DNA of 59,499 nt, the filler included. It is 6 parts of 6 records of this genome, joined end to end, with 100 filler letters (N's around TTAATTAATTAA, not from the genome) between each part and the next. Parts side by side here need not be neighbours in the genome. Positions count along the whole stretch, not along the records: positions 1 to 11,599 come from SRR2962707_4477; 5 more parts are not named here. One strand, given 5' to 3'. The number at the start of each line of letters is the position of its first letter. Position 1 is the first letter of the stretch. The notes under the pieces were generated by a model that was not told where the DNA came from, did no database searches, and saw only the letters and a program-made list of their open reading frames with translations. Of the stretch, positions 1 to 27,985 are shown in pieces. The position numbers and the translations under genes were made by a program.

Positions 1-52
1 GGGGGGGGGGGGGGGGGGGGGGAGGGAGGTATGTCGTGGAGCGCGAGCTCGT

Positions 53-3000
53 TTACGTGGAACATGCCTTCTTGCTCTTTCGCTTGGCTCGTTCTGCACT
101 CCGAGCCTCCTCTTCTTCGTCCGCAAGCGTCTTTTCGCGCAAGCCGCGACGCCGCCGCCGCTCGCGCCGAGCACGGCGACCACTCAGCGGTGTCAAATCG
201 TCAATGTCATCGTCAATCTGCAAATAAACAGCCACATTCTGTTGTTCATGACAGACATTATCTCAAACAAAGACTGCCTCAAAAGTAATTCGATTGAATA
301 ATACCTTTGGCGATGTTTGCTCATCCACTCCAGAGTGTCGCCCACGCCGGCGGCGTTGGTTGGTCCCAAGTGTCACAGGCTTTACCGCTGCGCCAGACTC
401 GTCGTCACTGTCATTTCCGCGCTTGCTAACTGTCAAACCTTCGCGATGAGCCCCGCCTTCGTACGCCACCTTGCTATCGGTCGCAACGATGCCACCGCCT
501 CCTGACATGACACATTGCAACAGAAAACATCACCTCGCTTACTTTGATCGTTGATTGGGCAACAGCTGATCATACGTTCAAAGCAATTGGCTCACCTTCG
601 GCTCCCTGTCCTTCGCCATCTTGCTCGGCATCCTTGCCTTCTTCTTGCACATGTTGCTGCTTCGCCTCCGGTGCACTCTTCGCGTCAATCTATCACACAA
701 GCAAATCGAATAAACCGGGTGCGAGGCGACGCTATTGTGCGTATTACGGACTATGACGGACTTTGGATGTGCAAATCACACACACCTTTTTTCGCCGTTG
801 CTTCTTCCTATTTCGCAGCACAAGCACAATCACGACGATGATGACCAACAGCAAAACGACCACGACCACAATAATGATGATTATCGTGTTGTCGTCTTCT
901 TGCTGATCCGGCGGGTTGTCGATGTTGAAGTCCGGGTCTTGTGTCGACGTCGAGGTTAGCGCCTGGTTGGTGCTCGTGACGATGACGACACCACGTGAGG
1001 TTGGCGGAATTCGAGCCGTCGTGGGAGTGAATTCAGTGATGATCGACTGCGAACTCACATCTGCAGTGGGACTGCTGGTGGAGGTTCCAGTCTCGCTCGT
1101 CACAACGCTGGTCGGGGCAGAACTTGTCGATGAAATTGTTCCAGCATGCGTCGACAAGGACGAACCACCGCTCGTCGAAACTGTTGCAATAGTTGTTGTG
1201 AAAATGGTTGATGTGGACATTGTGGAAAGCGTCGTCTTCGTCGTGCGAATGGGAGTTGCGACGACACTACTCAAAGGCAGAGTTGTGAGAAGGTCGGCTG
1301 CAGTTGATTCAGAGGACGCGGGTTCAGACTGTGTCGATGGCTGAACGTTTGACTTTGCAGAGGACGTCAGCGACGACTCCGTGCTCACTGCAAGCGAAGT
1401 TATCGACGGTGTGAATGCATCGGATGTGCTCGCAGTGGTCGTGGAGACAACTGTGGTCCAGGTGCCTGTGGTCGTTGTGGAGGTGGTGGTCGATGCAGTT
1501 GCTGTTGCTGTGGTCGTGGACGTGGTCGTCGACATAGTCGTGGACGTGGTCGTCGTTGTCGTGGTCGTCGTTGTTGTGGTTGTCGAAGTTGATGTCGTGC
1601 ACGAACTTTCGTCCACGGCGAATCCCGCGATAAATGGCCTGCGAAAACACCGCGTAAAACCAGAGGTGAGCGCGGGCACCTGTCGGCAAACTACCATCCA
1701 AACGACGAAGAAACAGGCAAAAAACAAACACACAGCAACACATACTGAAATGTTGAGCCATCAGATCCAAACTCCCCGTAAGCTGTTCCATACCACGGGA
1801 ACCGACGAGTCTCGTCCGTTGTGACTCCGTCATCCTCGAAAGTGAACACCATAATGGCGAGATCCATCGTGCTGCTGACGGCGCCTACATTTGCAGAATA
1901 CAATCGTGCAACCATTGGCTCATTTTACCGATTGGTCATCAACTTGATACCAGGCTCAGCACCAAACAGTTGTGGCAGACCTTGAGACAATGTAAATGCA
2001 ACGGAAAAGACGCCATTTTCGTCTGGCGCGGCGAGTTGAAGCACAACGCCATCTGCGTGGTCTTCGACCACGGCACCACCAGCGGCCGTATCCACGACGA
2101 GTGAGCTTTCCGACCAGCCACCAATCTGCAGGAAAGTAACATTGCAAAAGTGAGAACTGAAAGTGGTCGCAGGTGAACAATGTTTTCTTGGCATCCATTG
2201 AGCAACGCAGAAACACACCTGAACAAGTACAGATGTGGTGGCCCCATTGACAACCGCGAGGCCTCCATCCGTCAGCAAGCGGGCTGAGAACAAGAAGTCG
2301 CAACCATTCTGCACCATCTTGGGGCCCGATTCGGACGAGTCGTCGAGGAAACGGTACTTTCTTGCAATGGTGAACTGCAGGAAAAGCGCATCGATGATGT
2401 CCACCTTGCTATTGTAGTCGACATCCATTGCCGCAAACGACACATCAGGGTAGCTGGCTGAGTTTGAAATGTACCTGCACAGCAGAAGCATGTGGCGGTC
2501 GGAATTCTTTTGATGTATCAATCAAGCAACTGAAGAACATCATGGCCACGGAGACAGCAACGCGAACCGTACCGCATTATGAGCGCCAAGTCAGAAATCG
2601 TTATGCCGCAATCTTCGGTAACATCCCCAACCGCATCGCAATTGTTCTGCAATGATCGCCGCCGCGCCTGCGAGGGAGCAAACTGGGCTTTAAATACCGT
2701 TGTTGGGGCCGCTTCATACTCGTTTTGAAACGCAGCACGCAGGCCACGACGCAGACGGGACGAGTCGCCCACAACAACGGCGCCATTTCCAGCAACTCCC
2801 ACTGCATCACTAGCCAAAACTGTGTCCAAATTGGACCCAGCTTCTGAGCCCAAAAGCTCAACAATTTCAACAAAAATTTCGCAGGCACCGGCACCAACAG
2901 CTTCGAACTGAAGACTAGAAATATGAAGGTATCTGGCAGCACACAAATCAGTGTCAGTTAGAGTCCTATTCTACAGCACAAAGGCACAAAGGTTGGTGTG

Positions 3001-6000
3001 CTGGCACACCACTTTTACGAGGTTGTGAGCACGAACCCGCCCGAAACCGTCGAGTCCGTGGCCACCGAACTCAGCAAAACAGCGTTCGATGGGCTTCCAT
3101 AAGTATACACAACAGACTCGTCCCAGTCATCGCCTGTCGACTCCCCGTCCTTCACCGCAACAATCACCGACGTGTTAAAATATACAGCAAGTTGGAAGCC
3201 GGTCAAATAGAAATCTCCTGAATTCACGACAACATCGACCTAGAGTCATTGCACAAAGAACACCGAATGTGGTTGGTTTGATGAAGAAACACGCTTGCTT
3301 CAGCGTAATTGCCAGTCCAATGCTCTTTGACCAAGCACTCACCGTAAACTTGTCCCCAACAGCTTTTCGTGGGAACTGACTGCTTGACTTCTTGCCAAGA
3401 TCCACATCGTAAAGCGAAGGAACTAGGTTCACCGTTAAGTCCACGCTGTCCAATAGCCCGCTATCTAAGCTCGAAAAGGCGCTGATAGTCACTGTAAAAG
3501 AACCAGCCGTGTTCAGGAGAGCGGTCAACACACCTTCAGCATCAACGTCCAATGTGCTTGCCCTGCTCGTATCAAAGACGAGATAATCCGAATATGACAC
3601 AAAAGTTATTCCCTTGAGGTCACCAAGTGTTGTGCCATCGTCGAAGTCTGCGCTGACCACCATAGCTGTTGAAGCACCAGACACAGTCCGGACTGTGGAC
3701 GTTGGGCTAGTGACAGTAACATCAACAACAACAGTTGCTGCTTCAACCACAGATATAGAGATGTGTGTCTGAGCACCAAACCAATCGACTGCCACCGTTG
3801 CATCTCCGGCTCCAACGCCCGTAATCGCTGCAGTCTCAAGGCTTCCATCAGAAATCTCGCACTCACTGGCACCTTCCGAGCGGCAATGGTCCCCGACTGT
3901 TTCAGATGCTGAAATTAGGGTGTCCGTAGAACTCAAAGTCACTACGACATCCGAGTCTACATCGATTATTTTTTGAGTAAGCTCTTTGGAGACTGCTGTT
4001 AACTTCAATTTCAGCCGTTGAAATGGACCTTCCAGTGTTTGGATGCGTCGAATCGTTGTCTTGCCACTGCATTCCGTTGCAGCACAAGCTGGATATGCAT
4101 CAGCAGACAACTGGAGTGCATCAAACACGTCCACGACGAGCATGGCATTGCCAGTTACGTTCGTTCCAGCAAACGCAGCTGTTATGGTAATGGATTGACT
4201 GGTAACAGGCAGTTTGGCAACAATCACAACACACAACAACACTCAGAATACAAATGCTGATGTTGGAGTTCGCGCAATCAGTAACCATGTTCGCCATGCC
4301 CCACATCAAATGATGCCCGCACCTGTCACTGAGGCCCAGACTCTCAAAAGTGCTCAGGTCAGCAGAGTGTGACAGCTGCAATACCCCATCAGCAGAAAAA
4401 GCCAGATCCAATCGATCGTCGAAGGTGAAATCGCGCGTTGAGCCATCAGCAAACGTGCCTGTAGTAAGGTCGAGCAAAATTGTGGGGGCGAATTTCTCAA
4501 ATAACGCACAACTGGGCAAAACCCTGCGAGCCAAGCAAGCTTGCGACTTCGACCCAACAAATGAAGCAACCTACCTTCAACAGTCAAACGTGACGAAACT
4601 GGTATCCCCATTGCTGCAGCAAGGTCATCAGCTGGGGCAATGACATTCTTTGACAAGCTCACGGTGAGCTTCGAAATCGCCGGGAGAGAGACTTGCACCC
4701 ACGGGGTTGTCGAAACAGCTACAAATCCGGTTGTTGGACACCCGGCATTCCACGCCACTTTCAAAATGTCAACGCCTTCGATCGAGCTTCCAGCTACAGG
4801 CACACCCACGACCGGGGGGGCATTCCATGTTCCATTACTGAGTGTGGCGAGCGAATCAGGTTTCCAAGACACAACCGACAAGCCTTCAGACACAAACACG
4901 CTAGTCCCATCGCCGAAATCTACGTAAGCAAATACGGAGGCTGTGTCGCCCTCCGCCGTCAAAGACAAGGATGCTGCAGCCGACGCATCCATCGCTGGGG
5001 ATAGGCCAGTGTACCTGCCAACGATGCAAACAACACGCAAAACTCGCATGAGGATGAGGATGAGACACAATCGGAACTTTTGGTTGCGCGCCACCAGCAA
5101 ATAAACTTACGAAGTGAGGTCCTTTGGCACTGACAGAATCTCCACCGTGTTTAGGATAGTGGCGATGAGTTGACGCGTCACCACAACGGAGTCGACCACA
5201 ACAAACTGGACACTCGCAAGTTCTCCGTAACCAACAGAGACGGTGGCGGGCGAGGCGTCTGGGGTTGTACCCTGGGCAATCGCAAACATGCCGTAGGCAA
5301 ATGTATCCACTCGGATGTACCGTTCGCTCTGTGCTGACGGAACGTAAAACTCAGCAATGTTTGTGACATCAACACGGTCGGACTCCTTCAGCCCTGTTGA
5401 AGACTTCAGCCCCAACAGTGCAGTCGCACGCAACTCTGAGCGCTGATACGTAAAGTTCGAAACGGTGCCGGTGGTGGCCTTGCACGCCGCAGCCTGATCC
5501 ACAGTGAGGATTCGCTCCAGCGTCGTGTCTGAGGCGGTTATTTGCAGAGAGAACGGGTGCCAGACACGGAATCGAACCAATTGACTGAAGCCCAGATGGG
5601 TGACATTCACTGCGACATCCCCGCCAAACGTTGCAGTTGGGAGGACACTGACAGCACAGCCGCTACTAAAACGAGTTTCGATAATTGTCTCCGCGTTACC
5701 GTAGCTCGCTAAACCGCATACGACTGTGGTCGAGGCAGCAGTCGTTGACTCAGCGGATTCAAAGCAGCCACCAGCACCATCGGTGTGGCACGAAAAAATG
5801 CTTTTGACATTTACGACTGATTTCTGCTCAGATTGGCTCGAGCGACGGAGCACGGCAGTATTCAGAAACTCCAGCTCCGCAGCATTTTGAACATACGGCT
5901 GCACTCCCACAACTTCCTGATTGGCAACGTCGACCAAACCAGTATCTCGGAGCCCAACACGCGATCGGACAAGGCCAGAAAATCCAGGCTTCTCGATGTT

Positions 6001-9000
6001 GGCTGTGGAGACGACTTGCTGCACAATCAAGTCGTGCGAATTTGCAATCGTTGCATTACGCGAAAGGAAATTGCTGGATATTTTAAAGATCAGATTGGCA
6101 ACTGTGAGCTCGCGGCCTCGCACCTCACTGAGATCTGTGACGCTGCTCAGTATGGTCGCAGCGCACCTGGTGAAGGACGAGTTGACCGAAGCACATTCAA
6201 GCTTAAACAGTGAGGAAGAAGCTTCTTGGAATGTGATCTCGGCGTTTGTTGTGATGCCAACAATCCATCCACCGAGACTGAAAAAACTACCACGGGAAAG
6301 TAACTCTTCCGTGCTGACCACGAGAGGTGCTGCAAACGCCTTGCCTGGTAAAATGGGAAATGTGGGAAGACGGAGAACAAACTGACCGGGCGACACATCG
6401 CCAGAAAAATGCGGGGGGACTTGGGCAAGAATGATGCTCACATCATTTGACACGAGCGGCGCAACAGAGTCATCTGTGGTGGCCTCGAGTGAAATTTCGA
6501 CAGGCCCAGTGCTGGAAAACCAGTCAGAGAATTCCGAGGCGGCGTCGACGACGCATTCCAGCCCCCGTGCGGCGGTAAAGTCGCCGCCATCGGCACAATG
6601 AAGAAACAGAGTGTCTCCGCTTGCGGGATTGGACGCCACGAGGACGACTGTTGGGAAACTAGGAATGCCGAAGCCAGGCCCAGAAACCCAAATTCGAGTC
6701 ACAAGCGTGGCGCTGTCAGCATACAGAACTGGAGTCCGCACGATTTGCTGCAAGTGGGTCAATGCTGTGGATGCCATCTGCACGGGAGAAGACGGCATCT
6801 CCGCATACCACCCTTTGAGAGATGCGGAGAAACTTACGGCCGTTCGGTGGGGGGTCGTGACCATCTTTTGCTGCCTTGATGAAATGCGGGCAGGACTCAT
6901 GGATGTGATTTGACCACCCATGTTGTCGAGGTTGCGGAAATCACCGTCCCATAACGAGTAAGCAGCTCCCACAGGATCAATCTGTAGAAAGGATCGATTT
7001 TGCAACGGGCGGAAGGCGCCAACGTCGATTGCGGCGGTTCCATTGAACGTTTGCCGCAAACAAGGGGCCCAGCTGACAGACACAATGTCATTTGAGGTGG
7101 CATGGATGAAGGCACCCTCCGAAATGGACAACATTCCCGCAACGCCATTCTGTGGCTGAGCAAACACAAGATCAGCTGCCGAGCTCGATAACACGAGGTT
7201 GTTGGGAGACAGGTACACGTTTCCCGGGCCAGACCAAAGCGACGACGGGCCAATCGGATTGGACATTCCATCCGAGAATTGAGCGAAAGCGTACACACCA
7301 GCTTCTCGATGTTCTGCGTCCAACTCGTGGAAAGCAAAAGCAGTGATGTTGCCAACGATTGCATCATCGTTTTCGGAACCGCGTGCTTGAATAATCTCCC
7401 CAGCAATTGAAAGTCTATTTACAACGGCAGCACTTACAAGGGTCACGGACACGGCATCGTCGGTCGCCTGGACCAGTGTTGCACGATCGCAACCGGGAAA
7501 GCAGGTCACTGAAACAGCCCCAGGCTCCTGGACCATCAACAATGACCCCTCAAAAAAGGCATTTTGCACAACGCTCTCAGAGGAGACATTGAACGTCACG
7601 AGTGGAGAGATATCTACCCCGTCGATGCGAGCCACAACCGTGTTCCGGGTAGAGACTAAGCCCCGCGATGACGCTGGATCCAAGTCCATCTCCTCGGCCA
7701 GAAAACGATCCCGACGGCTTAGCCGAGTGCCGCCACGACTCGCCGTTGTTCGCCCACCACCTCTGCCTGCTGCTGTTGTTGTTAATCTCGGCGACTCAGT
7801 TGTGTATGGCAGGCATGCTCCAGTGCGATCGCGCGCGTTCGTCGGATTGTACGGGCACACGTCCACATTCCCGCACAGCAAGTCTCCGTCTGCATCGTTT
7901 TCTGCATCGTAGGCACAACTGTCATCAAGCCGACACAGCCCATCTTGATCAGCATCATTCTCTCCATCATACGGACAAGAATCCTCGTCGGCGCACAGCA
8001 TATCGACATCAATGTCATTATCACCATCGGACGGACAGGAATCGGAACTTGAACAGATGTCATCACTGTCTTCGTCAACATCACCTGGGCAGAAGTCTAA
8101 GTCGCCACACACACCGTCGAGATCGATGTCATTTTCTGCATCATGAGGGCACGAATCGATGTTCGCACAGAGCAGATCGGCGTCTGAGTCATTTTCTCCG
8201 TCAATTGGGCAAGAATCCACCCCTGTGCAAATTCCGTCGCGGTCCGCATCGTTTTCCCCATCGTACGGGCACTGGTCGTCCGGGGCACATATCATATCTG
8301 CATCTGCATCGTTTTCCCCATCATACGGACAGGAGTCGACATCGCGACACAAGTCGTCCGCGTCCGAGTCATTTTCCCCATCGAGAGGACACGAATCCTC
8401 ATCGTTCAGGATCCCGTCGAAGTCAATGTCCACTGACGGCGTGGTACTTGGCGCATCACACGCCTTGCAAATGTTAGATTGTCCGCCCGTCGTCTGTTCC
8501 GTGCTCGTGAGTGCAAAGTTGAATTTCAGTGCGCCACCGGACAAATGGTAGCACCCTGCAACCCGTGTCAATTTGTCAAGAACACCTGCCTTTGTGTCCG
8601 ACAGTCCAACAAACGCCGCGGCTGATTCGCATTCCTCTGCCGTTTCAATTGTACAAAAACCATAGTAATCGTTGCACGTGCCAACCCCAACGAACGCCTC
8701 GTAGTAAGGTGCGTCTGTTGATTCATGAGTAGCAGCAAGTGTTGTTGTGGTGCGGCGATTTTCGGACGTTGTGGTGCCCACACTGGTTGTGGTCCTTCCG
8801 GTCCGTATGGGGAGTGTTGTGGTGCGAGCTGTCGTCGTGGTGCGGCGTGTGGGCGCTGGTGCACCCGCGGGTTTCAGATCTTCCCGCTGCGGTGTTGGCG
8901 CAACTGGGTCTCTAGCTGGCGCTGGGGCAGGCAACCCTCCATGCTGGTCGCTTCCATCATCAGCAGCAGGCTCGCCACTGCGCAAGGGACTCGGATGATG

Positions 9001-11599
9001 CTGTCGCAGGGGAGGCAGCGAAGGTGCTGGTGCTCGGAAAGGGCTTGGTTGTGGTGTTTGGCGCACGGGCGTTGGCGCATGTTGCCGAGGTCCTGGTTCC
9101 CCTGCTCGTAGCGGCGTTGGGGCCATCTCTCGGGGGGCTGGCACGAGAGCCCGCGGCGCTGGCACAAAGGTTGGGCGTCCTGTTGTTGTGACACGTGGCC
9201 GTGTTGTGGTCGTACCACGACCAGGCGCCGGTACTCGTCCCCGTGGTGCCGGAGCGGGAACGACAGGACGCCGTGGCGCTGGTGCAGGTGCTCGTCGAGC
9301 TGGCGCTGGTCGAGCGCTCGGCGACGGAGTACGACCATTGGACGTTCCACCGCCAGGAGTTCGACCGTTGCTGTCATCATCGGGTGCAGGAGTTCGACCC
9401 CGTGGAGCAGGGGCCTTGACAAAGCATGTGGATCCGGGTCGGAAATTATCGGGGTCAAAAGGGCACGCGTCTGTGTCGGAGCAAACCATGTCGCTGTCAA
9501 CATCGTTGAGAGCGTCATCCAAGCACGAATCCAAGTTGTCACAAATACCATCGCTATCGTTATCATTGCCAGAAAAATAAGGACAAGGATCAACGCCTGC
9601 ACAAAGGTTGTCTTGGTCCGCATCGTTCTCTCCATCGTAAGGACAAGTATCAATCGGAAAGCAAATGCCATCATTGTCAAAATCATTGTTTGGATCGTAC
9701 GGGCATTCATCAACGTTTGCGCAAATCAAGTCACCGTCCGTATCGTTTTCACCATCATAAGGGCAACTGTCCATGTTTCCACAAATGCTGTCTGCATCAA
9801 TATCGTTCTCTCCGTCGTACGGGCACTCATCAACGTTTCCACACTGTTGGTCACCGTCAGCATCGTTCTCTGCATCATACGGACATGTGTCGGCATTCGC
9901 GCAGAAGCCGTCACCGTCAATGTCATTTTCTCCGTCATATGGGCAGGTGTCGTCAGGGGCACACACCAGGTCTGCATCTGCGTCGTTTTCACCGTCGTAA
10001 GGACAGGAGTCAGTGTCAGCACACACAAAGTCACCATCGGCGTCGTTTTCACTGTCCCGCGGGCAGGAGTCCGTGTTACCACAAACCTGGTCGGCATCTA
10101 CGTCATTTTCGGCATCGTATGGACAAGAATCAATGTTCGCGCACACGCTGTCATTATCAGCATCATTTTCCCCGTCATAAACGCACGAATCCTTGTCGCC
10201 ACACACAAAATCCCCGTCTACATCATTTTCACCGTCATAAGGGCAGGAATCGGCATCGCTGCAGGTGTCGTCTCCATCGGCATCGTTTTCGGGATCACTG
10301 GCACATGAATCGTTGCTTGTGCACAGGCCATCGCTATCTGCGTCGTCAACGAAGTCGTATGGACACACATCATCAGGAAAACAAACTCTGTCCGCATCAG
10401 CATCATTCTCGCCATCAGCAGGACATGAGTCCACATCCATGCACGCGTCGTCCCCATCTTTATCATTTTCCGCATCGTGCGGGCAGGAGTCATCCGCAAG
10501 GCACAAATTGTCGTTGTCGACGTCGTTTTCTGCATCGAAAGGGCATGTGTCGTCGCTGCGACAGATCCCATCAGCATCTGCATCGTTTTCACCATCATCA
10601 GGACAAGAGTCAACGTCGCTGCACAGCAAATCACTGTCAGCGTCGTTGAAAAAGTCAAGCGGGCAACTGTCCACGTCCCCACAAACTTCATCACTGTCTG
10701 CATCGTTATTTGCATCGTATGGACACACGTCGATATTTTTGCAAATAGCATCCCCATCTGCGTCATTCTCGCCATCTGCAGGGCAACTATCAACGTTTCC
10801 ACAAAGCAGGTCTGAATCGAGGTCGTTGGCAGCGTCGTCCGGACAACTGTCGTGGTTAGTGCACACGTTGTCTGAGTCATGATCGTCAAGGGCATGGTTC
10901 GGACAAGAGTCGATATCGCCACACGTGTTGTCACCGTCGATGTCGTTAAACAAGTCATATGGGCAAGAATCCTGCTGAAAGCACAGGTTGTCACTGTCGT
11001 GATCATTCCCTGGGTCCAAAGGACAACTGTCTAAATTGCCGCAGATGCCGTCTTTGTCTGCGTCGTTTTCTGCATCGTAGGGACAAACGTCCTTGTCTGC
11101 GCAGAGTCCATCCCCATCGCTGTCGTTCTCTCCGTCGAGTGGACAAGAATCGGCGTCGCGACAAAGAAAGTCGCTATCGGCATCATTATTCAAGTCAAAT
11201 GGGCAGCTATCGACGTCGCCACAGAGTCTATCATCGTCAAAGTCATTGGCGATATCGTTGGGGCAAGAGTCGTCTGGGCCACACAGCCCGTCATTGTCCG
11301 CGTCATTGTCAGGGTCCACTGGGCAAGAGTCTTCATCTGCACAGAGACTGTCGCTGTCGACGTCGTTTTCACGGTCAGTTGGGCAACTGTCAATCGGGGC
11401 GCACATGCCGTCGCCATCGGCGTCGTTTTCGACGTCGTTTGGACATGAATCTGCATTACCACACACACCGTCGCCGTCAGTGTCGTTCTCGGGATCAAAC
11501 GGGCAGGAGTCGACCTCACTGCAAAGTCCGTCGTTGTCGGCGTCGTTCTCCCCATCGTTGCCACAACTGTCCTCATCTCCACAGAGCATATCGCTGTCA
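53..11599 (-). CDS. Giant intron-containing eukaryotic type-I membrane protein (TSP3-like repeats, TMEM132-like/cohesin, dockerin, mucin stalk, TM); 5'-truncated
   Basis: Hand-spliced exons, minus strand: 11599-5111, 5014-4575, 4458-4323, 4198-3343, 3239-3037, 2932-2573, 2474-2219, 2125-1981, 1884-1746, 1638-786, 689-596, 501-305, 217-53. All 12 introns are GT..AG, 87-124 nt, and phases match at every junction (about 10.3 kb CDS, about 3,440 aa). Donors at 3036 and 1980 have in-phase alternatives. The last exon end is uncertain. Confidence 0.85.
816..884 (-). other. Transmembrane helix followed by basic stop-transfer sequence
   Basis: IIIIIVVVVVLLLVIIVVIVLVL then RNRKKQRRKK. Confidence 0.9.
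940..1600 (-). repeat. Thr/Ser-rich mucin-like stalk with poly-Thr (ACN)n tract
   Basis: TTSTSTTTTTTTTTTTTTSTTMSTTT... in ORF 744..1733. Confidence 0.85.
2368..2640 (-). other. Dockerin-like duplicated Ca-binding loop-helix domain, split by intron 2475-2572
   Basis: Spliced GDVTEDCGITISDLALIMRYI...MDVDYNSKVDIIDALFLQ gives two copies of the dockerin DxxxDxxxxxxD-helix motif. Confidence 0.75.
2856..3370 (-). other. Second cohesin-like domain, spanning 2 introns
   Basis: Spliced sequence VGDKFTVDVVVNSGDFYLTGFQLAVYFNTSVI...YLHISSLQFEAVGAG fits the cohesin strand pattern. Confidence 0.65.
5111..6400 (-). other. TMEM132-like cohesin plus Ig-like (BIG) region of the giant protein
   Basis: LPTFPILPGKAFAAPLVV (cohesin-like start); VNVTHLGFSQLVRFRVWHPFSLQITASDTTLERI...YQRSELRA...RVDVT resembles recalled TMEM132 motifs (VWxP..LQIxxSDxxLxxI..YQ). 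Confidence 0.6.
7840..8430 (-). repeat. Coding tandem repeat block 2: about 10 TSP3-like 20-aa repeats
   Basis: Same unit, from DIDFDGILNDEDSCP to CGNVDVCPYNP; one unit is shortened. Confidence 0.85.
9424..11599 (-). repeat. Coding tandem repeat block 1: at least 36 x 60 bp (20 aa) thrombospondin type-3-like Ca-binding repeats
   Basis: Unit CxxxDxCPxDxENDxDxDxx counted 36 times without indels in ORF 5107..11589; runs off the contig end. Confidence 0.9.
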
Positions 11600-11699
11600 N
11601 NNNNNNNNNNNNNNNNNNNNNNNNNNNNNNNNNNNNNNNNNNNTTAATTAATTAANNNNNNNNNNNNNNNNNNNNNNNNNNNNNNNNNNNNNNNNNNNN
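11600..11699. other. Artificial contig linker
   Basis: N44-TTAATTAATTAA-N44; gene content changes abruptly across it. Confidence 0.98.
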
Positions 11700-13358
11700 C
11701 CAAGGCATCCAGGCAAAGATCATCGCCTGTGTCGCGTCCGTGGGCGCTGGGTTCAGTTTCTGCTGCAACCACATCGAAATACCAAGCAGGATTGGCAGGA
11801 TGCCAAGGCTCGCGATGGCAAAGATCGAACCAGGCTCTGGCGGCGCGAAGGACAACAGGCCAAACAGGTTCAGGATGGATGTGGGATCAGGCGCGGAAAG
11901 GTCATGAATCCAGCCGATCCAAGGGGCGTGACGCAGCTCCATCGTGACAAAGATAACCTTGTACAGCGAGAAGAAGATCGGCACCTGCATCAGGATCGGC
12001 AAACAACCGGACGCCGGGTTGACCTTTTCCTTCTTATACAGCGCCATCATTTCTTGCTGAAGCTTGGCGCGGTCGTCGCCTGCACGCTCTTTTAGTTTTT
12101 CCATTTCTGGCTGGAGCTCTTTCATCTTTGCCATGGAGACATAAGATTTATAGGCCAGCGGGAAGAGGACCGCTTTGATCAGCAGTGTCAACAGAATGAT
12201 CGACCAACCCATGCTGCCTGGAACGTTCAAGCCCGACAGGGTTTTGTTCAGCCAATGCAAAACCGCGAAAATCGGCTTTGTCAGGAAAAAGAACCAGCCC
12301 CAATCGATGCTGTCGACGAACCGGTCAACGCCTTCATCGTTTTGATAAGCGCGGATGGTTTCCCATTCCTTGGCGCCGGCGAACAAACGCGTGGTCACTT
12401 CGCTCGATTGACCGTCAGCAAGGGTTAGCGTCGGGAGAACCGTTTCAGTTTGATAGATATCGCGGGCTTCGTCATATTTTGCGACTGATTTGAACGCAGA
12501 ACCGGGCGCAGGGATCAGTGTCGACATCCAATAATGGTCTGTGAAGCCGGTCCAGCCGTTTTCGGTGACCTGCGTTACTTCTGCGCGGGCGCCTTCGCTG
12601 GCGACAACGCTAAAGTCGGCCATGTCGCCATAGTCGCTCTCGGTCAGCTCACCGTCTGACATCGACACCAAACCTTCATGCAGAATGAAGAAGTTTTTTG
12701 TGTCTTGAGGCTCGCCGTGGCGGGCAAGGATCCCATAAGGAGCCAGCGCTGCGGTGCCACCAGACGTGTTTTGCACCGATTGTGTCACGGTGAACATAAA
12801 GTCTTCGTCGACGGCAATCGTGCGACGGAAGGTCAAGTTGGCGGGACTCTGCCATGCCAAAGTGATCGGTGACTCTTCGGTCAGGATCGAACCGCTTTCC
12901 AGACCCCAAATCGTGTTTGGTCCCGGAACGTCGTCCAGACCCAGACCCGCGCCAGGCGCCCAGCCGTAAAGGGCGTAATACGGCGAATCTGATCCAACCG
13001 GCGACAAGATTTGAACGATGTCTGAGTCAGGCTCAATCGTGTCGCGGAAATCTTTCAAATACAGGTCATCGATCCGACCGCCTGTAAGGGAAATTGTCCC
13101 TTTCAAGCGGGGGGTGTCGATGTCGACACGGGCCGCTTCGGTTGTCTCGACCATGGCACCTTGTTGCGTGGTCACACCGTTTGCAGGTGACGTCGCCAAG
13201 GGAGCTTGGCTCGGCGCGGTGGTCGCGTCCGAGATTGCAGCCGGGGCCGGCGTTGCTATTTCCGCTGTATCTGGCGGTGGAAACAACACGAACCAAACAA
13301 GTATGACGGCGAAGCTTAACGCCGTCGCCAAAATGAGATTCTTGTTTTGATTGTCCAT
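11700..13358 (-). CDS. yidC: Membrane protein insertase YidC (3'-truncated)
   Basis: MDNQNKNLILA..., IDWGWFFFLTKP, GCLPILMQVPIFF; next to yidD/rnpA/rpmH. Confidence 0.96.
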
Positions 13359-14194
13359 CAGGGACCACCACCTATCGCTTTTGAAGTTCAGGCAGGGTTC
13401 AACAGAGTGAGGCACCAAAGGTCAAGCGGAATCGGGTGGAATGCGACGCCATGAGGCCGACAGTTGGTTGCTGACGGGCGTTTCTGCTCGAACAGCCCCT
13501 GTTTTTGTCAGTTTCCCTCGGCGTTGTACCACGTCCCTATGATTTATTGGCCGTCATGGGGCGTCGGGTTCTGATCATGTGAACTTGGTAGAAATGCTCA
13601 TTTCACCGCGTCGTATTGAATGCCCGGTTTCCCAAAGCTTCTGTAACAGTTTCAAGGCACAACCGTCATGGTATTGGCTATTTCTGAAAGTAAGGAAGCG
13701 ACTGCCCTTCTTATTGCGCCAAAGAGTTGATACCGGATTTGAGGGACTTCGGGCTCAGATGCTGAGCTTGAGGAAGGGGCGCAGGCCTGCGAATTCATCC
13801 GCAAAACACGCTTTGATAAATTCGTGAACCCGGTTTCGGCTACGAGTTCAGTTTTTTCAGATGTGGGTCGCCAACGGCGTTCAATATCAGAGTTTGCCGC
13901 ACCTCGATTCGCGGCGTGAGCAGCATAAACATTTCAGACAACGCCACCAGGAAGCTGGCTTTAGGAAATCCGAGTTTCTACGACTCTGGCTTGAAGGAAT
14001 TCAGCGCAAAGCAGGTTCAGTTCTCGGCTTTGAACCTGCGTGCTCTGGCCGTCATGCAGGGCTTTGCTGCAGACCGTTATGCAGATGGCAAACAGGCGTC
14101 TAAAACGTTAGGAAACAATGAAGGACGATGCACAGTTTTCTCAGCTCACTCGCCAAGCCAATGGCAGAGGGGCAAAGCGAGCCGACTTGAGCTG

Positions 14195-15067
14195 CTATTG
14201 ACGCAACTTTGGAATGCCCAAAGAGTCCTTGGCGCTTTTGTCAGGGTCCAGACTTAGCCCAGCGAAGTCAAATAATTTGGGGTCCAGCAAATGCGAGGGG
14301 CGCGCATTCATCAAAGCGCGGAACATCACTTGGCGACGTCCGGGGCTGTTCTTTTCCCAGCCATCTAAGATTTGTTTTACTTGCTGCCGTTGCAGCCCGT
14401 CCTGCGACCCGCAAAGGTCACAAGGAATAATCGGATAGTCCATGGCGCGGGCGAATTTCTCACAATCAACCTCGGCCACATGCGCCAAGGGACGGTAAAG
14501 AAAAAGGTCACCCTCTTCGTTAACCAGTTTCGGGGGCATTGTGGCCAATCTGCCGCCGTGGAACAGGTTCATGAAGAAGGTTTCAAGTATGTCGTCGCGG
14601 TGGTGGCCCAGAACGACGGCTGAACACCCCTCTTCGCGGGCAACCCGGTAAAGATTGCCACGACGCAAACGCGAACACAGGGCGCAAAAGGTGCGCCCTT
14701 CCGGCACTTTGTCCATGACGACGGAATAGGTGTCCTGATATTCGATGCGGTGCGGAACTTTCATCCGCTCAAGGAACTCTGGCAGGACCGTCGCTGGAAA
14801 GCCGGGCTGACCCTGATCCAAATTGCAGGCCAGAATATCCACCGGCAACAAGCCACGCCATTGCAGCTCGTACAGGATGGCAAGAAGGGTGTAGCTGTCC
14901 TTGCCCCCCGACAGGCAGACAAGCCAGCGTGCGCCACGCTCTACCATGCCATAGGCTTCGATCGCGTCGCGGACATTGGCCACGATACGTTTTCTCAGTT
15001 TCTTGAACTCGGTGCTTTTGGGCGCGCCGTGAAACAAGGGATGGATGTCGTCAAGATCGTCGAGCAT
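14195..15067 (-). CDS. ttcA: tRNA 2-thiocytidine(32) synthetase
   Basis: SGGKDS PP-loop, [20 protein letters not shown]. Confidence 0.95.
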
Positions 15068-15166
15068 GTGCGGCGTTCCAGTGTGAAATATCGCGCAGGT
15101 CATAACGCGCAACGCCGCAACAATCCAGAGGAGGCGGCGTCAGGTCGGGGCGAGAGCCGCGCCGGT

Positions 15167-15388
15167 CTAGTCTGGAACGTTGTCGATTCCAGAGCCACCA
15201 AAGGGATTGCATCGCCCGACACGGCGTGCCGCCAGCCATCCACCTTTTATCGCCCCGTGCTTTTCGAGCGCTTCCAATGCGTAAGCGGAACAGGTTGGGT
15301 GGTATCGGCAGCCACGCCCCACCCAGGGCGACCACAACAGCCGGTAGGCGCGGACAGGAAGAGAAAGGAGATAGGCGGCGGGTGTCAT
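15167..15388 (-). CDS. yidD: Membrane protein insertion efficiency factor
   Basis: [11 protein letters not shown]...RCNPFGGSG. Confidence 0.93.
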
Positions 15389-15389
15389 G

Positions 15390-15794
15390 TCAGGCATGTA
15401 TTTTTCTGAGGGCATAGATCAAGTCGCCCTGCAAATCGGTAAAGTCCCGCTCGGCCGTTGTTTTGGGGCGGCCAATCAACACGTAGTCATGCCCGGCTTT
15501 GCCATGCTTCAGTAGAACCAAACGGGCCACTTCGCGCAGCCGCCGTTTGGCGCGATTGCGCGCCACGGCATTGCCGACCTTTTTGGAGCAGGTAAAGCCG
15601 ACACGAATCGTTGGATCACCGTCATCGCGGAACCGCGCCTGAACGCCCATGCCATTGGTGCCACGACGCATAGCGCGGGCCGCGGCCAGAAACTCCGACC
15701 GTTTGCTGAGCACCGGAAGTGATCCTGCTGAACATGAAGAAACCGCCAGAGGCGTGTTCCCCAATGAAGTGTCGGGGGCCTCTGGCGGTATCAT
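15390..15794 (-). CDS. rnpA: Ribonuclease P protein component
   Basis: [25 protein letters not shown]. Confidence 0.95.
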
Positions 15795-15817
15795 CTTGTC
15801 TGAACCTAAAAGGTCGC

Positions 15818-15952
15818 TTATGCGCTAAGCACTTTGCGGCCTTGTGCGCGGCGCGAGTTCAAGATCTTGCGGCCGGCTTTAGTTGCCATACGCGCACGAA
15901 AACCGTGACGCCGTTTGCGAACCAGGTTCGAAGGTTGAAATGTGCGTTTCAT
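15818..15952 (-). CDS. rpmH: 50S ribosomal protein L34 (below the ORF-track cutoff)
   Basis: Manual translation [44 protein letters not shown]. Confidence 0.97.
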
Positions 15953-16248
15953 CGCGAGCTACTCCGTACTGTCGTTCACCGACATCGCGGATTCGCGTGG
16001 TCGGATGTATTCGAAGCCCGTGCTATAGGGGGGGTCTTGGAATAAGTCAAACGTTGCAGACGACTGTTTGCAACAATTTCGGTCTGTTGGCGCATTTGAC
16101 CTTGAGAAATGTTTCAATCCTGCAAAATCACCCCTGTTTTCTAGCAGAACTTGTCACCCGTGATCAACGCGGCGTGAGGCGGGTGTCGTTTTCTGTCCTC
16201 AGAGCGCATCTGTGATAGCAACACCAGACAAACTAGGAGCGCAAAGAA

Positions 16249-16980
16249 GTGACCATGATGACTGATTCCCCGTCCAAGGGCCTGATGCGGTATGTGCCGA
16301 TGATCGCCATTCTTGTGGTTGCTGTGATTGGGGCGATTACACTGCGTGATTATCTGAGCTTTGACGCGCTGCGCGAGAACCGTGAGGCGTTGTTGGCCTT
16401 TCGTGATGCCAATTACCTTCTGACTGTTCTTGTGTTTATCGGGGCTTACATCACGATTGTTGCGTTCTCTTTGCCCGGGGCCACTGTGGCGACGTTGACC
16501 GGCGGGTTCCTCTTTGCAACCTTCCCCGGTGCCTTGTTCAACATCCTTGGTGCAACGCTGGGCGCTACGGCGATCTTTCTCGCGGCGCGGTGGGGGCTGG
16601 GCGAGCGATTGGCAGCCAAAATGGAAGGCAGCGATGGGGCCGTGAAGCGGATCAAAGACGGTATTGATGAGAACCAATGGTCCATGCTGTTCCTTATTCG
16701 GTTGGTCCCGGCCGTGCCATTCTTTGTGGCCAACTTAGTGCCTGCGCTGGTTGGTGTGCCGCTTCGCCGTTTCTTTGTGTCAACGTTCCTCGGAATTATT
16801 CCCGGTGCGGTGGTCTATACGTCGGTCGGCGCCGGACTTGGCGATGTGTTCGAACGGGGTGAAACGCCGAATCTCGGCATTATCTTTGAGCCTCAAATCC
16901 TTCTGCCGATCTTGGGTCTGTGTGTTCTTGCTGCGCTTCCCATCATTTTCAAAGCCCTTCGTGGCAAAAAGGACGTCTGA
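16249..16980 (+). CDS. TVP38/TMEM64 (DedA/VTT) family membrane protein
   Basis: Hydrophobic; LIRLVPAVPFFVAN and FFVSTFLGIIPG motifs. Confidence 0.88.
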   Translation: MTMMTDSPSKGLMRYVPMIAILVVAVIGAITLRDYLSFDALRENREALLAFRDANYLLTVLVFIGAYITIVAFSLPGATVATLTGGFLFATFPGALFNILGATLGATAIFLAARWGLGERLAAKMEGSDGAVKRIKDGIDENQWSMLFLIRLVPAVPFFVANLVPALVGVPLRRFFVSTFLGIIPGAVVYTSVGAGLGDVFERGETPNLGIIFEPQILLPILGLCVLAALPIIFKALRGKKDV

Positions 16981-16983
16981 GCC

Positions 16984-18402
16984 ATGCAAAGTGTGAAAAC
17001 TGATATTCTGGTCATTGGCGGCGGTTCGGGTGGGCTTTCCGTTGCAGCGGGTGCGGCTCAAATGGGCGCAGACGTGGTCCTGTTAGAAGGTCACAAAATG
17101 GGTGGCGATTGCCTGAACTATGGCTGTGTTCCCTCCAAAGCGCTGATCGCCAGTGGTAATGCGGCTTATGGGATGGGGCATGCGGCACAATATGGTATCG
17201 CAGACATGGTGCCTTCTGTGGATTATGCTGCCGCCAAAGATCATGTGGCCGACGTGATTGCTCAGATTGAGCCGGTCGACAGTCAGGAACGGTTCGAAAG
17301 TCTTGGGGTCCGGGTGATCCGGGAATTTGGCCGTTTTATCTCTTCTACCGAGGTCGAGGCCGGCAATTACAGGATTACGGCGCGCCGAATCGTTATATCG
17401 ACGGGGTCATCGCCGTTTGTGCCACCTATTTCGGGTTTGGACACAGTGCCCTACCTTACGAACGAATCCCTATGGGAATTACGGGAAAAGCCTGAACACC
17501 TGTTGGTGATTGGTGGCGGCCCCATTGGCATGGAGATGGCACAGGCACATCGTCGCTTGGGGTCAAAGGTTACGGTGATCGAAGGCTTCAAGGCGCTTGG
17601 CAAGGATGATCCCGAAACGGCGGCAATCGTCCTAGATCAGGTGCGCGCCGAAGGAATAGAAATTGCCGAAGACGCGCTGGCTCAGGAAATTCGCGGCAAA
17701 GCCGGAGCCATCGAAATCGAAACCAAAGACGGGCGTGTTTTCAAAGGCTCTCATCTGTTGGTAGCCGTCGGTCGTAAGGCCAACGTCGAAAAGCTAGGAC
17801 TGGACGAGGCCAGAATTGAAACGACAAGGACGGGTATTCAGGTAGATGCCAGCCTCAAAACGACCAACAAGCGGGTCTATGCCATCGGCGACGTCGCAGG
17901 GGGTTTGCAGTTTACCCATGTGGCGGGATACCACGCCGGTATAGTGATCCGCTCTGCCTTGTTTGGTCTTCCGGCAAAAACGCGCACCGACCATATCCCC
18001 TGGGCCACGTATACTCAGCCAGAGCTGTCTCAGGTTGGCATGACAGAAGCTCAGGCAAAGGACGCCCATGGCGCAGCGCTCGAAGTGGTCCGTTTTCACT
18101 ATAGTCATAACGACAGAGCCATCGCCGAACGAAAAACCGAAGGCTTGATCAAGGTCATGGTTGTCAAAGGCCGCCCCGTGGGCGTATCGATCGCAGGTTA
18201 CCAAGCCGGAGAGCTGATCAATCTATGGTCGCTTGTCATTGCCAATAAGCTTAAGATGTCCCACGTTGCGAACATGGTGTCGCCCTATCCGACAATCGGA
18301 GAGGTTAACAAACGTGCTGCAGGTGCTTATTTCTCGCCCCGACTGTTTGACAGCAGCAAAGTCAAAAAGGTGGTCGGATTTGTACAACGCTGGCTGCCAT
18401 AA
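16984..18402 (+). CDS. Pyridine nucleotide-disulfide oxidoreductase (mercuric reductase-like/LPD family)
   Basis: GGGSGG, GGDCLNYGCVPSK redox disulfide, GGGPIG, YPT; lacks the C-terminal CC pair. Confidence 0.88.
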   Translation: MQSVKTDILVIGGGSGGLSVAAGAAQMGADVVLLEGHKMGGDCLNYGCVPSKALIASGNAAYGMGHAAQYGIADMVPSVDYAAAKDHVADVIAQIEPVDSQERFESLGVRVIREFGRFISSTEVEAGNYRITARRIVISTGSSPFVPPISGLDTVPYLTNESLWELREKPEHLLVIGGGPIGMEMAQAHRRLGSKVTVIEGFKALGKDDPETAAIVLDQVRAEGIEIAEDALAQEIRGKAGAIEIETKDGRVFKGSHLLVAVGRKANVEKLGLDEARIETTRTGIQVDASLKTTNKRVYAIGDVAGGLQFTHVAGYHAGIVIRSALFGLPAKTRTDHIPWATYTQPELSQVGMTEAQAKDAHGAALEVVRFHYSHNDRAIAERKTEGLIKVMVVKGRPVGVSIAGYQAGELINLWSLVIANKLKMSHVANMVSPYPTIGEVNKRAAGAYFSPRLFDSSKVKKVVGFVQRWLP

Positions 18403-18421
18403 CGGGAACTGAACGTCGATC

Positions 18422-19804
18422 ATGTTGAATTCGCTTTCTGGTCGCTTCCTGCTTTTGACCACGGTCTTTGTCATGTTGGCAGAGATCCTGATCTTTGTGC
18501 CTTCTGTTGCCCGCTTCCGAGAGGACTATCTCTTAGCGCGCCTTGAACGGGCTCAAATTGCGTCGCTGGCGCTGTTGGCGGATGACATGATCAGCGCCGA
18601 TCTAGAAGAAGAGCTGTTGCAAAACGCGGGCGTTTTCAACGTTGTGTTACGCCGGGACGAAGCCCGCCAATTGGTGCTGTCCTCTCCAATGCCAGGGCCG
18701 ATCTACACAACATTTGATGTGCGGGATGCGCCGGCTCTGACCCTGATACGGGACGCGATCGCCTGTTTGCTGGACCCCACTCCGCGCATCATTCGTGTGA
18801 TTGGAAACCCGCTGTTGGATGCGGGGCAATTGATCGAAGTTACGATGGAAACGGCGCCTCTACGTTCGGCTATGGTCGACTATGGATTGCGCATTTTGCT
18901 GTTGTCCGCAGTGATTTCGGTGTTCACGGCCTTTCTCTTGTTTCTTGCGGTTCAGCGCCTTTTGGTGCGGCCAATCAAAGGTGTTGTTGGCCACATGCAA
19001 AACTATGCAGCAGCGCCAGAGGATGCGCGGCGGGTGATCGAACCCAGTGCTAAAGTCCGCGAATTGCGCGAGGCTGAGGAGGCCCTGCAGTCCCTGCAAA
19101 CGCAACTAACTCAGGCATTGAAACAAAAAGAGCGTTTGGCACAGCTTGGGGGGGCGGTTGCGCGGGTTAGCCATGATTTGCGCAACATCCTCACCACGGC
19201 GCAATTGTTCACCGACAGGATCGAGATGTCTCAGGATCCGACGGTCGTGCGTTTGGCGCCAAAACTGGTGAATTCGATCTCAAGGGCCGTGTCTTTGTGT
19301 GAAAACACGCTTGCTTTTGGCCGCGCAGAAGAACCGGTGCCTAAACTCTCATTCGTTAACTTGGCCGAACTGGTCAGCGATGTTTTGGACGGTGAAAGAC
19401 TTGCCATTGGGAACAATGATCTTAGCCTTAGCGAAGACATCCCGGCCACTATGATGATCAGGGCAGATCACGAACAGCTGTATCGCGCCTTGTCCAATCT
19501 TGTGCGCAATGCGCGCCAGGCAATCATCGGGGTAGGTGGCGAAGGCGAAATCAATATCAAGGCTTATGCGGCAGATGAAGCTTGGCATATCGAAGTTTCG
19601 GACACGGGTCCGGGGCTGCCGCCAAAAGCGCGCGAGCATTTGTTTCAGGCATTCCAGGGAGGGGTGCGCAAGGGAGGCAGCGGTTTGGGCCTGGCCATCG
19701 TGGCCGAACTCATTCGCGGCCACGGTGGGAGCTTGGATTTGCGCCGCTCTGATGAGAGCGGCACATGTTTCGAGATTACGCTGCCTATGGGAACTGTCGG
19801 CTGA
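18422..19804 (+). CDS. Membrane sensor histidine kinase
   Basis: Two TM segments, H-box SHDLRN, NLVRNA, DTGPG, GSGLGL. Confidence 0.92.
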   Translation: MLNSLSGRFLLLTTVFVMLAEILIFVPSVARFREDYLLARLERAQIASLALLADDMISADLEEELLQNAGVFNVVLRRDEARQLVLSSPMPGPIYTTFDVRDAPALTLIRDAIACLLDPTPRIIRVIGNPLLDAGQLIEVTMETAPLRSAMVDYGLRILLLSAVISVFTAFLLFLAVQRLLVRPIKGVVGHMQNYAAAPEDARRVIEPSAKVRELREAEEALQSLQTQLTQALKQKERLAQLGGAVARVSHDLRNILTTAQLFTDRIEMSQDPTVVRLAPKLVNSISRAVSLCENTLAFGRAEEPVPKLSFVNLAELVSDVLDGERLAIGNNDLSLSEDIPATMMIRADHEQLYRALSNLVRNARQAIIGVGGEGEINIKAYAADEAWHIEVSDTGPGLPPKAREHLFQAFQGGVRKGGSGLGLAIVAELIRGHGGSLDLRRSDESGTCFEITLPMGTVG

Positions 19805-20608: not shown

Positions 20609-20769
20609 ACGATTCCCCATGGTCAATAAGGCCTCAAACAGCCCTTTCGGACACCATAGGGCGATGTTTGGGTGTGGAAAAGTCCTATGTCTTAACAGGA
20701 GGCGCATTGAATCCTCCCCGATGCTCAGGCACAACAAGCGCAAATTGTCCGATATTGGTGGGTGCCCGT

Positions 20770-23678: not shown

Positions 23679-23688
23679 GCTAGCATTA

Positions 23689-24753: not shown

Positions 24754-24790
24754 GGCGTGCACCTCTCAGAAACGGGTTTGTAATGGGGCA

Positions 24791-25525: not shown

Positions 25526-25543
25526 ATTCTCCCTGAATTGGGG

Positions 25544-26068: not shown

Positions 26069-26353
26069 CAGATTGACCCTAATTGGGATGAGCTTTTTGA
26101 CAGCGGGAAAACAAGCAACAAGTCTGTGCGGAAATCAGAACAAATGCCAGCAAAATATCTCAGACCACGAATGGTCCATGTGGGCCGGATAAGAGTGTTC
26201 GTCTTGGCCGAGAGAACATCGGATTCCCAAGATCCGCGAAACACGTTACCATGACTAAGTCACGAGAAGTAAGCGACGTTCAAATTGGCCCTCGCAGACA
26301 TGTCCGCCTAGGGGTTTGCCCGGACCGTCCCATTGGTGCCGGGCATCCATAAC

Positions 26354-27370: not shown

Positions 27371-27507
27371 TCGTCTCTCCCTATCGACATTGTCAGACCT
27401 CAGCCCGAACTTGCGGATCACATACCGCAGTGTTCCGCTGATAAACTCAGACAGAGACGGCAATGACAAGGAAAAAATGTCATCTTGTCACACCAGTTGA
27501 CTGGCGC

Positions 27508-27966: not shown

Positions 27967-27985
27967 GAATTAAGACCATGGACCC

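Follow-up and report, generated by a model that had tools for sequence, protein, structure and literature searches.

Introduction

The pairing of cohesin with dockerin is among the strongest protein-protein bonds known and, so far as we are aware, has been studied almost only in bacteria. Non-cellulosomal modules reportedly occur in all three domains of life, and a 2009 survey by Peer et al. is said to make this point and may already list eukaryotic dockerin-like modules. Here we describe a eukaryotic gene that fills the first contig of a 59,499-base stretch of assembled DNA (the whole of which is called the window in what follows). Its product is a giant single-pass, type I-like surface glycoprotein with a TMEM132-like core, in which a dockerin stands beside a cohesin-fold domain.

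Eukaryotic cohesins are known from choanoflagellate and sponge proteins, and a cohesin homologue is present in animal TMEM132, where the domain order runs from a conserved region through the cohesin homologue to three BIG domains (Sanchez-Pulido & Ponting 2017, PMC6030884). The same work reported that dockerin homologues are undetectable in vertebrates and left open the binding partner of the TMEM132 cohesin homologue (PMC6030884). Among bacteria, the cohesin of Ruminococcus bromii Amy4 binds the dockerin of its own chain by array, enzyme-linked immunosorbent assay (ELISA) and pull-down, a result taken to suggest multimerisation (Ze et al. 2015, PMC4611034). Our literature search returned 'dockerin' together with 'TMEM132' in PMC6030884 only, and found no description of protist proteins with a cohesin-dockerin architecture of the kind presented here.

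A preliminary description of the window, made from its letters, had proposed a eukaryotic surface protein carrying two cohesin-like domains and a dockerin-like motif, and had seen in it a candidate cellulosome-style assembly system. The surface protein, the two domains and the dockerin are all borne out by the results below. The last proposal was overstated: since no enzyme or scaffoldin is attached, the locus does not specify a cellulosome-like enzyme assembly. What it does reveal is an expressed eukaryotic TMEM132-like family with a real dockerin beside a cohesin fold, to which it is modelled to bind.

The spliced gene and its dockerin

The locus represents the 3' 11.5 kb of an expressed eukaryotic gene, and its spliced form can be seen directly. 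The splice model was built from the reading frame and by eye, and then compared with contigs from public sequencing runs over window positions 1-7600. All 12 introns prove to be joined in a single 12,339-nt contig of public run X2; that run is labelled RNA by guess, so that the evidence for splicing is the joined form of the contig and not the label. Every one of the 12 has the ends CT..AC on the plus strand in this comparison, equivalent to GT..AG for a gene on the minus strand, and the introns are retained in contigs from the DNA run X1, which read through them unspliced. A third run, X3, contributes a small share in scattered short pieces with sequence differences and is disregarded here. 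Read from 11598 to 67, the resulting frame runs through 3439 codons without a stop, in agreement with the single spliced chain originally supposed.

67..11599, minus strand: partial gene with at least 13 exons (spliced contig and open frame)
5015-5110, 4459-4574, 4199-4322, 3240-3342, 2933-3036 and 2475-2572, minus strand: introns, first set (spliced X2 contig)
2126-2218, 1885-1980, 1639-1745, 690-785, 502-595 and 218-304, minus strand: introns, second set (spliced X2 contig)

Independent support for the same mature sequence comes from a homologue, P0039 (JGI, 553 amino acids, 'hypothetical protein'), which is collinear with the spliced model over five exon junctions, at 51% identity across 526 columns. 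The parts of the product on which the present argument turns are as follows.

5914..6393, minus strand: cohesin-fold domain 1, homologous to the TMEM132-type cohesin (structure match)
2755..3423, minus strand: cohesin-fold domain 2, on three exons separated by introns 3240-3342 and 2933-3036 (model of the homologue P0039)
2629..2754, minus strand: basic linker, predicted to be poorly ordered and containing RR/KR motifs, in the window ...SQARRRSLQNNC... (predicted local distance difference test score, pLDDT, <50 at P0039 residues 205-234)
2339..2628, minus strand: dockerin module of two Ca-loop/helix repeats, split by intron 2475-2572 (splice and family profile)
1635..2338, minus strand: post-dockerin β domain (conserved in the family; β strands at P0039 residues 310-408)

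The dockerin is divided by the 98-nt intron 2475-2572, exactly where an intron had been placed in the preliminary description. Once spliced, it reads GDVTEDCGITISDLALIMRY followed across the junction by ISNSASYPDVSFAAMDVDYNSKVDIIDALFLQF (window 2628..2339, minus strand). A dockerin repeat is made up of a 12-residue Ca loop, with Asp or Asn at positions 1, 3, 5, 9 and 12, and a helix after it. Two repeats of loop and helix are evident in the window module, with the putative Ca-ligand positions kept. The first loop, DVTEDCGITISD, has the pattern D-x-T-x-D-x-x-x-T-x-x-D, with Thr at positions 3 and 9, and the second, DVDYNSKVDIID, has the pattern D-x-D-x-N-x-x-x-D-x-x-D. Most homologue dockerins contain the canonical GDTNGDG, and G, D, D, D and D are invariant at loop positions in an alignment of eight homologue modules (A1).

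Profile comparisons separate the module from a generic EF-hand. With the A1 profile, the window module in its spliced form reaches 46.9 bits. Run against the PDB, the profile ranks dockerins first (4dh2_B at E 6.8e-7 and 1daq_A at 4.6e-6, then 4fl4_A, 2mte_A, 2yik_A and others); the first EF-hand, a polcalcin, appears only at E 0.07. Against Pfam Dockerin_1 (PF00404), for which the gathering cut-off is 22.9 bits, the dockerin of P0039 scores 24.4 bits (E 3.3e-5, profile positions 2-53 of 57), and this module is identical to that of the window at 48 of 64 positions (75%). The cut-off is also passed by P0038 (25.8 bits) and P0002 (35.4 bits; 25.2 for the module alone). When the homologue modules are taken in isolation, seven of the eight match Dockerin_1 at E up to 1, the best with 25.2 bits; P0004, P0006 and P0011 lie under the cut-off, at 14.6-17.8 bits. 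Each exon half of the window dockerin, taken alone, is too short and gives no Pfam match at E up to 1. In sequence searches of the PDB, the exon 7 half finds 8x39_A best (E 0.13, on dockerin-like repeats) and then the filaggrin S100 EF-hand (E 0.26), while the best match to the exon 6 half is an unrelated homeobox protein (E 0.031). In the P0039 model, the dockerin forms three helices (residues 250-261, 271-274 and 284-294) with pLDDT values of 66-79. Judged by sequence, the assignment as a genuine Dockerin_1-type dockerin is firm at the level of the family.

A Cys at position 6 of loop 1 is accompanied by another shortly upstream in the window, P0039, P0004, P0007, P0013 and P0017. In P0002, P0006, P0011, P0020, P0037 and P0038 that position is occupied by Gly, Ser or Glu and the upstream Cys is lacking. 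This paired presence and absence suggests a disulphide that would staple the dockerin N-terminus in part of the family, as would fit an extracellular module. In the window the Cys pair site lies near the dockerin start, at 2615-2645 on the minus strand, with counterparts in homologues.

Basic motifs of the form RR/KR-x-L recur just before the dockerin: ARRRSL in the window, TKRRSM in P0039, QRRHL in P0002 and QRRSL in P0038. They may represent a protease site or a conserved contact.

Two cohesin-fold domains

The presence of two cohesin-fold domains in one chain is firmly indicated by structural models. Their borders differ somewhat from those first proposed: the upstream domain, earlier placed at 6070-6390, extends over 5914-6393, and the downstream one, earlier 2856-3370, over 2755-3423.

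Domain 1 was modelled with AlphaFold2 from the translation of window 5893-6855, aligned with 20 relatives, giving a mean pLDDT of 85.6. With VIA-align, residues 155-314 of this model match cohesins at Z 14.2-10.2, and all of the top 40 rows are cohesins. The best is 2jh2_C, with Z 14.2 and a root mean square deviation (rmsd) of 2.2 for 127 of 130 residues. Foldseek likewise returns cohesins as the single-domain matches, with template modelling (TM) scores on the target of 0.6-0.76; its top-ranked rows are two-domain matches to integrin legs with poor TM scores.

Since domain 2 is split over three exons, P0039 was folded in its place. The mean pLDDT of the model is 62.5 overall and 80-90 within cohesin domain 2, where P0039 residues 54-207 are identical to the window domain at 95 of 154 positions. 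Again cohesins fill the ranking, accounting for all of the top 32 rows (Z 14.3-11, rmsd 2.3-2.8, 131-132 residues), and superposition on 6kgc_A, for example, yields an rmsd of 2.3 over 131 residues. Integrin leg and pilin domains come after the cohesins in the structure rankings, with Z about 10-11. Both domains, the second by way of P0039, are nine-strand flattened jelly-rolls that superpose on solved cohesins.

Resemblance at the level of sequence is slight. Pfam Cohesin (PF00963) matches two of 21 family members, weakly (best E 0.0034), and is unmatched on P0039, P0002, P0007 and six other homologues. Because the sequence match is weak and the fold match strong, we speak of cohesin-fold domains, homologous in the sense used for TMEM132, and not of members of Pfam Cohesin.

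An unnamed family with a conserved cassette

An exhaustive HMMER search with the 830-residue core against 1.84 billion representatives found 36 proteins at E up to 1e-3, of which 19 reach 1e-10 and four 1e-30. A word-based search of longer proteins with the same core gave no match. The unannotated homologues foreseen in the preliminary description do exist: none is labelled with more than 'hypothetical protein', some are nameless, and a cluster look-up of ten yielded no taxon.

Fourteen dockerin-bearing long sequences are listed (P0002, P0004, P0006, P0007, P0011, P0013, P0017, P0020, P0039, P0044, P0048, P0049, P0053 and P0054); P0044, P0048 and P0049 are not independent, being members of the 90% clusters of P0002, P0011 and P0017. 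In all 14 cohesin 2 lies 29-66 residues upstream of the dockerin in the same chain, and in 13 the post-dockerin β domain follows directly, P0006 ending some five residues past the dockerin. Pfam finds no match to this β domain in P0039. Although family members are otherwise only about 30% identical, the double Ca loop and helix pattern of the dockerin is kept. The window protein is a member of this small family without a name, whose hallmarks are a TMEM132-like core and a conserved cassette in which cohesin, basic linker, dockerin and β domain follow one another.

The relation to TMEM132 is seen most clearly in PF16070 (Ig_TMEM132_4th). This profile matches eight of 21 aligned family members at E up to 0.1 (best E 1.3e-15), and its cut-off of 27 bits is passed by P0004 (45 bits), P0007 (44.5), P0013 (27.6) and P0018 (27.2). 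On the window itself the match falls below the cut-off (E 0.022, 15.1 bits), and the other TMEM132 Pfam domains find no match there. The β domain, the cohesin fold and the fourth-domain match stand in the TMEM132 order; an additional cassette and a stalk precede the transmembrane helix.

Variations on the architecture occur. P0002 (4561 amino acids) bears the unit cohesin 1-Ig-cohesin 2-dockerin-β domain twice, at residues 557-1769 and 2304-3516. The dockerin segments of the two P0002 copies are identical, and the doubling may be genuine, the product of tandem duplication, or may have arisen during assembly. Other members carry TSP1 repeats, an LNR domain or cytoplasmic ankyrin repeats. The closest homologue, P0001 (46% identical), has no dockerin and only half of cohesin 2, and is taken for a truncated gene model. 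The nearest Atlas cluster (score 0.90) has PF16070 in 68% of its members and is for the most part labelled Haptophyta, the phylum being known for 14 members; we treat this label as a taxonomic lead only. The source organism of the window gene is probably a protist.

Predicted pairing of the dockerin with cohesin 2

Whether dockerin and cohesin might bind one another was addressed by modelling the complex of P0039 cohesin 2 (residues 50-212) with the dockerin (232-300) and two Ca2+ ions. The dockerin is placed on the adjacent cohesin with a score of 0.66 in each of three runs, compared with 0.01 for the best of three controls. For orientation, the mark applied to this score is reached by 51 of 78 solved complexes and by 2 of 108 mismatched pairs. 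The runs share at least 96% of contacts, and the pLDDT of the partner, the dockerin, is at least 83. Predicted contacts involve strands 3, 5, 6 and 8 of the cohesin (numbered by DSSP strand order in the P0039 model), met on the dockerin side by loop positions 9-11, helix 1 and helix 3 (at its end), an arrangement that corresponds to the canonical geometry of cohesin-dockerin complexes. The cohesin contact residues are better conserved between P0039 and the window than the remainder of the domain, with 22 of 25 identical against 73 of 129 elsewhere (Fisher p 0.002).

Several observations weigh against this pairing. Across 13 homologues the cohesin contacts are conserved no better than the rest (0.39 vs 0.39, p 0.65), and the corresponding values for the dockerin are 0.43 and 0.34 (p 0.34). 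Cohesin-dockerin is a textbook pair with many solved complexes, so the passing score may reflect likeness only, or memory. The model was run without supplied alignments and with ligand, unlike its calibration; it used the homologue P0039 in place of the window's own spliced protein, and cohesin 2 alone, not cohesin 1, as partner. The window itself has Thr at ligand position 3 of loop 1, a departure from the usual Asn or Asp. Pfam Cohesin is unmatched both on the window exons (E up to 1) and on window 5893-6855 (E up to 0.1), and a family cohesin profile (A2) finds no PDB sequence, and hence no solved cohesin, at E up to 1. Finally, the cohesin and dockerin of a single bacterial scaffoldin chain usually do not bind each other. 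Setting these points beside the model, we judge the chances that the dockerin pairs with cohesin 2, in cis or in trans, to be evenly balanced.

The gene encodes a receptor of the adhesion type that carries both plug and socket, and their most likely mode of action is as follows. The Ca-loaded dockerin would dock on cohesin-fold domain 2, engaging its 8-3-6-5 strand face through helix 1 and the last part of helix 3; the two modules are joined by a flexible basic linker of about 40 residues. In cis, the result would be a latch within the chain, making the stalk stiffer or shorter and giving way under a pull. In trans, the dockerin would enter a neighbouring copy, leading to head-to-tail self-association on one cell or between cells. 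With a disordered linker of 29-66 residues, cohesin 2 and the dockerin of a single chain could reach each other and, since the dockerin follows cohesin 2 at this distance in the same chain, an intramolecular latch is at least as likely as polymerisation or the bridging of cells. Ca2+ binding, the pairing itself and its action in cis or in trans are inferred.

Two small domains of this kind offer a concrete and cheap system in which to study plug-and-socket use by a eukaryote, be it for adhesion, self-assembly or a mechanical latch. The family could in addition clarify the ancestry of TMEM132-type adhesion proteins.

Alternative explanations

The modules may instead be purely structural, the cohesin folds acting as rigid β-sandwich spacers and the dockerin as a Ca-stabilised helical hinge that binds no cohesin. 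Such a spacer role is what is assumed for the TMEM132 cohesin, itself without a known dockerin partner (PMC6030884), and the family-wide conservation of the predicted interface, no better than that of its surroundings, would be in keeping with it, as would cohesin folds that have diverged too far for Pfam Cohesin. The explanation sits less comfortably with a double Ca loop and helix pattern retained in a family of some 30% identity elsewhere, with a complex model that passes its controls, and with an interface at which window and P0039 agree more closely than elsewhere in the domain. On balance we think it unlikely, if deserving of serious attention.

Alternatively, the dockerin could bind, yet find its partner in some other cohesin-fold domain or protein, cohesin 2 being merely its neighbour. 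The partner might be cohesin 1 of a neighbouring molecule or cell, which would produce homophilic bridging, or a separate cohesin-bearing protein, which would amount to heterotypic tethering. Each chain does have two cohesin-fold domains, a passing complex model cannot tell which family member is bound, and bacterial dockerins normally bind cohesins of other chains. Among longer proteins, on the other hand, the dockerin profile finds this family alone (nine matches) and no other dockerin or cohesin architecture, a weak argument given that the search was word-limited, and the fixed adjacency of cohesin 2 and dockerin would be left unexplained. We consider a partner elsewhere quite unlikely.

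In a more elaborate version of pairing with cohesin 2, the cassette from cohesin 2 through the basic linker to the dockerin would act as a noncovalent joint that bears force and can be cleaved. A protease of the kexin/furin type would cut the conserved dibasic linker, between ARRR and S in the window and between TKRR and S in P0039, and the shed ectodomain would then be held on its membrane stalk solely by the Ca-dependent cohesin-dockerin bond. Such a joint would be a protist counterpart of the 'cut and hold' junctions of SEA, GAIN and Notch-S1. If it were so, the orphan cohesin of animal TMEM132 would go back to a receptor that formerly had a dockerin ligand of its own. The proposal is a speculative one, and we hold it to be improbable.

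It is hardly credible that the gene is spurious, whether through chimeric assembly or because a bacterial cohesin/dockerin gene was mistaken for a eukaryotic one: the stretch does consist of concatenated contigs, the second of them bacterial, but the spacer at 11600-11699 lies outside the gene, a single transcript-like contig has the 12 GT..AG introns removed while independent DNA contigs are unspliced, and P0039 is collinear across exon junctions.

Remaining architecture of the protein

Outside the parts already listed, the spliced product comprises the following.

7800..11598, minus strand: N-terminal region with two blocks of a 20-residue Asp/Cys repeat (DSCPxDxENDxDxDxxC), 44 copies in all (regular expression count)
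6406..6768, minus strand: all-β domain before cohesin 1 (β strands at residues 30-150 of the AlphaFold2 model; conserved in homologues)
5554..5889, minus strand: Ig-like domain matching the TMEM132 fourth domain (weak Pfam PF16070 match)
3424..5553, minus strand: β-rich ectodomain of about 600 residues on four exons (collinear and conserved in homologues)
885..1607, minus strand: Ser/Thr-rich mucin-like stalk of 241 residues, 55% Ser+Thr (composition)
816..884, minus strand: single transmembrane helix, then RNRKKQRRKK (read from the sequence)
67..815, minus strand: charged cytoplasmic tail on four exons, incomplete (spliced translation)

By the same count, the Asp/Cys repeats are spaced at exactly 20 residues in 40 of the 43 gaps, and their two blocks are split by a Pro/Thr-rich spacer and a Cys-containing module. 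Pfam has no match in the N-terminal 1332 residues, even at E 10. By eye only, the repeats resemble the Ca-binding type 3 repeats of thrombospondin. The all-β domain at 6406..6768 occupies the place of the 'conserved region' in the TMEM132 architecture, and for the region 3424..5553 homologues give only weak matches to Ig_TMEM132_6th. The dockerin had been described as membrane-proximal, which holds in a relative sense: a β domain of about 135 residues and a stalk of about 240 intervene between it and the transmembrane helix at 884..816. Phe is absent from the visible tail (about 157 residues, incomplete at the contig end), so that no WIRS or RVxF motif is possible in that part.

Gene ends and composition of the window

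The gene is truncated on its 5' side at the contig end, 11599, which puts the N-terminus and signal peptide out of view, and on its 3' side it continues beyond window position 67. Here the spliced X2 contig departs from the window and continues into about 2 kb of dissimilar sequence, the break itself lacking a GT. The contig end of the window is a run of C, with reads seemingly cut at 1-37. The last 66 bases, at the 1-67 end of the window, could belong to an intron or reflect a contig end of poor quality.

Two further observations concern the coverage of the gene. The X1 DNA contigs are one base short at 2674, 4814 and 6849, all within G runs in exons, where X2 matches the window; these gaps are probably homopolymer errors, not frameshift alleles. 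Over 1525-1778 the summed contig depth rises to 4308 in X2 and 6356 in X1, with many loose ends at 1545-1585. The Thr-codon repeat of the mucin stalk draws in contigs from elsewhere at this point, and its copy number or length may vary.

The window as a whole is made of six contigs joined by five spacers, each of 44 N, TTAATTAATTAA and 44 N.

11600-11699, 30420-30519, 37138-37237, 48084-48183 and 53738-53837: spacers (sequence inspection)

Piece 1 (1-11599) is the eukaryotic contig and contains the one minus-strand gene described here and nothing else. Piece 2 (11700-30419) is bacterial, with YidC (695.8 bits), TtcA and RnpA. From the six spacer-joined pieces, a G+C content that varies between 53 and 66% across them, and the bacterial nature of piece 2, we conclude that the source is mixed, an assembly or bin in which a single contig is eukaryotic. 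No second copy of the cohesin or dockerin parts is found by tblastn in the rest of the 59,499 bases.

Comparison with known systems

The closest eukaryotic parallels are TMEM132 and the TMEM132-like core of the choanoflagellate and sponge cadherins termed coherins, lefftyrins and hedglings (PMC6030884). Shared with them are the single-pass topology and the order in which a β region is followed by a cohesin and then by an Ig-like domain; cohesin fold 1 of the window directly precedes a domain of the Ig_TMEM132_4th type. The window protein differs from TMEM132 in that its PF16070 match is below the cut-off and its visible tail lacks WIRS and RVxF motifs. Added to the TMEM132 plan are the Asp/Cys repeats, the second cohesin fold, the dockerin with the domain after it, and the mucin stalk.

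With the bacterial type I cohesin-dockerin pairs (PDB codes 1ohz, 4dh2, 6kgc and 2vn5) the family has in common the two 22-residue Ca-loop/helix repeats of Dockerin_1, the nine-strand jelly-roll of the cohesins and a predicted interface of the 8-3-6-5 face with helix 1 and the end of helix 3. In contrast to those pairs, the host here is eukaryotic and its gene interrupted by introns, neither an enzyme nor a scaffoldin is attached, and the cohesins are invisible to Pfam Cohesin. Furthermore, cohesin and dockerin adjoin in one membrane-anchored chain, and part of the family has a likely disulphide.

A precedent for the binding of a chain's own dockerin is provided by Amy4, in which cohesin and dockerin likewise occupy one chain (PMC4611034). 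That protein is a secreted bacterial amylase, whereas ours is of the adhesion type, anchored in the membrane and devoid of a catalytic module, and its binding is only modelled.

The non-cellulosomal cohesins of Clostridium perfringens glycoside hydrolases (PDB codes 2jh2, 2vo8, 2w1n and 2o4e) are among the best structural matches to both folds. Their Z values of 14.2-14.3 are within 1 Z of those of cellulosomal cohesins, and they are 5-13% identical to the models. They exemplify use of the pair beyond cellulose degradation, in bacterial secreted enzymes and with cohesin and dockerin on different proteins; in the family described here both lie in a single chain, at the surface of a eukaryotic cell.

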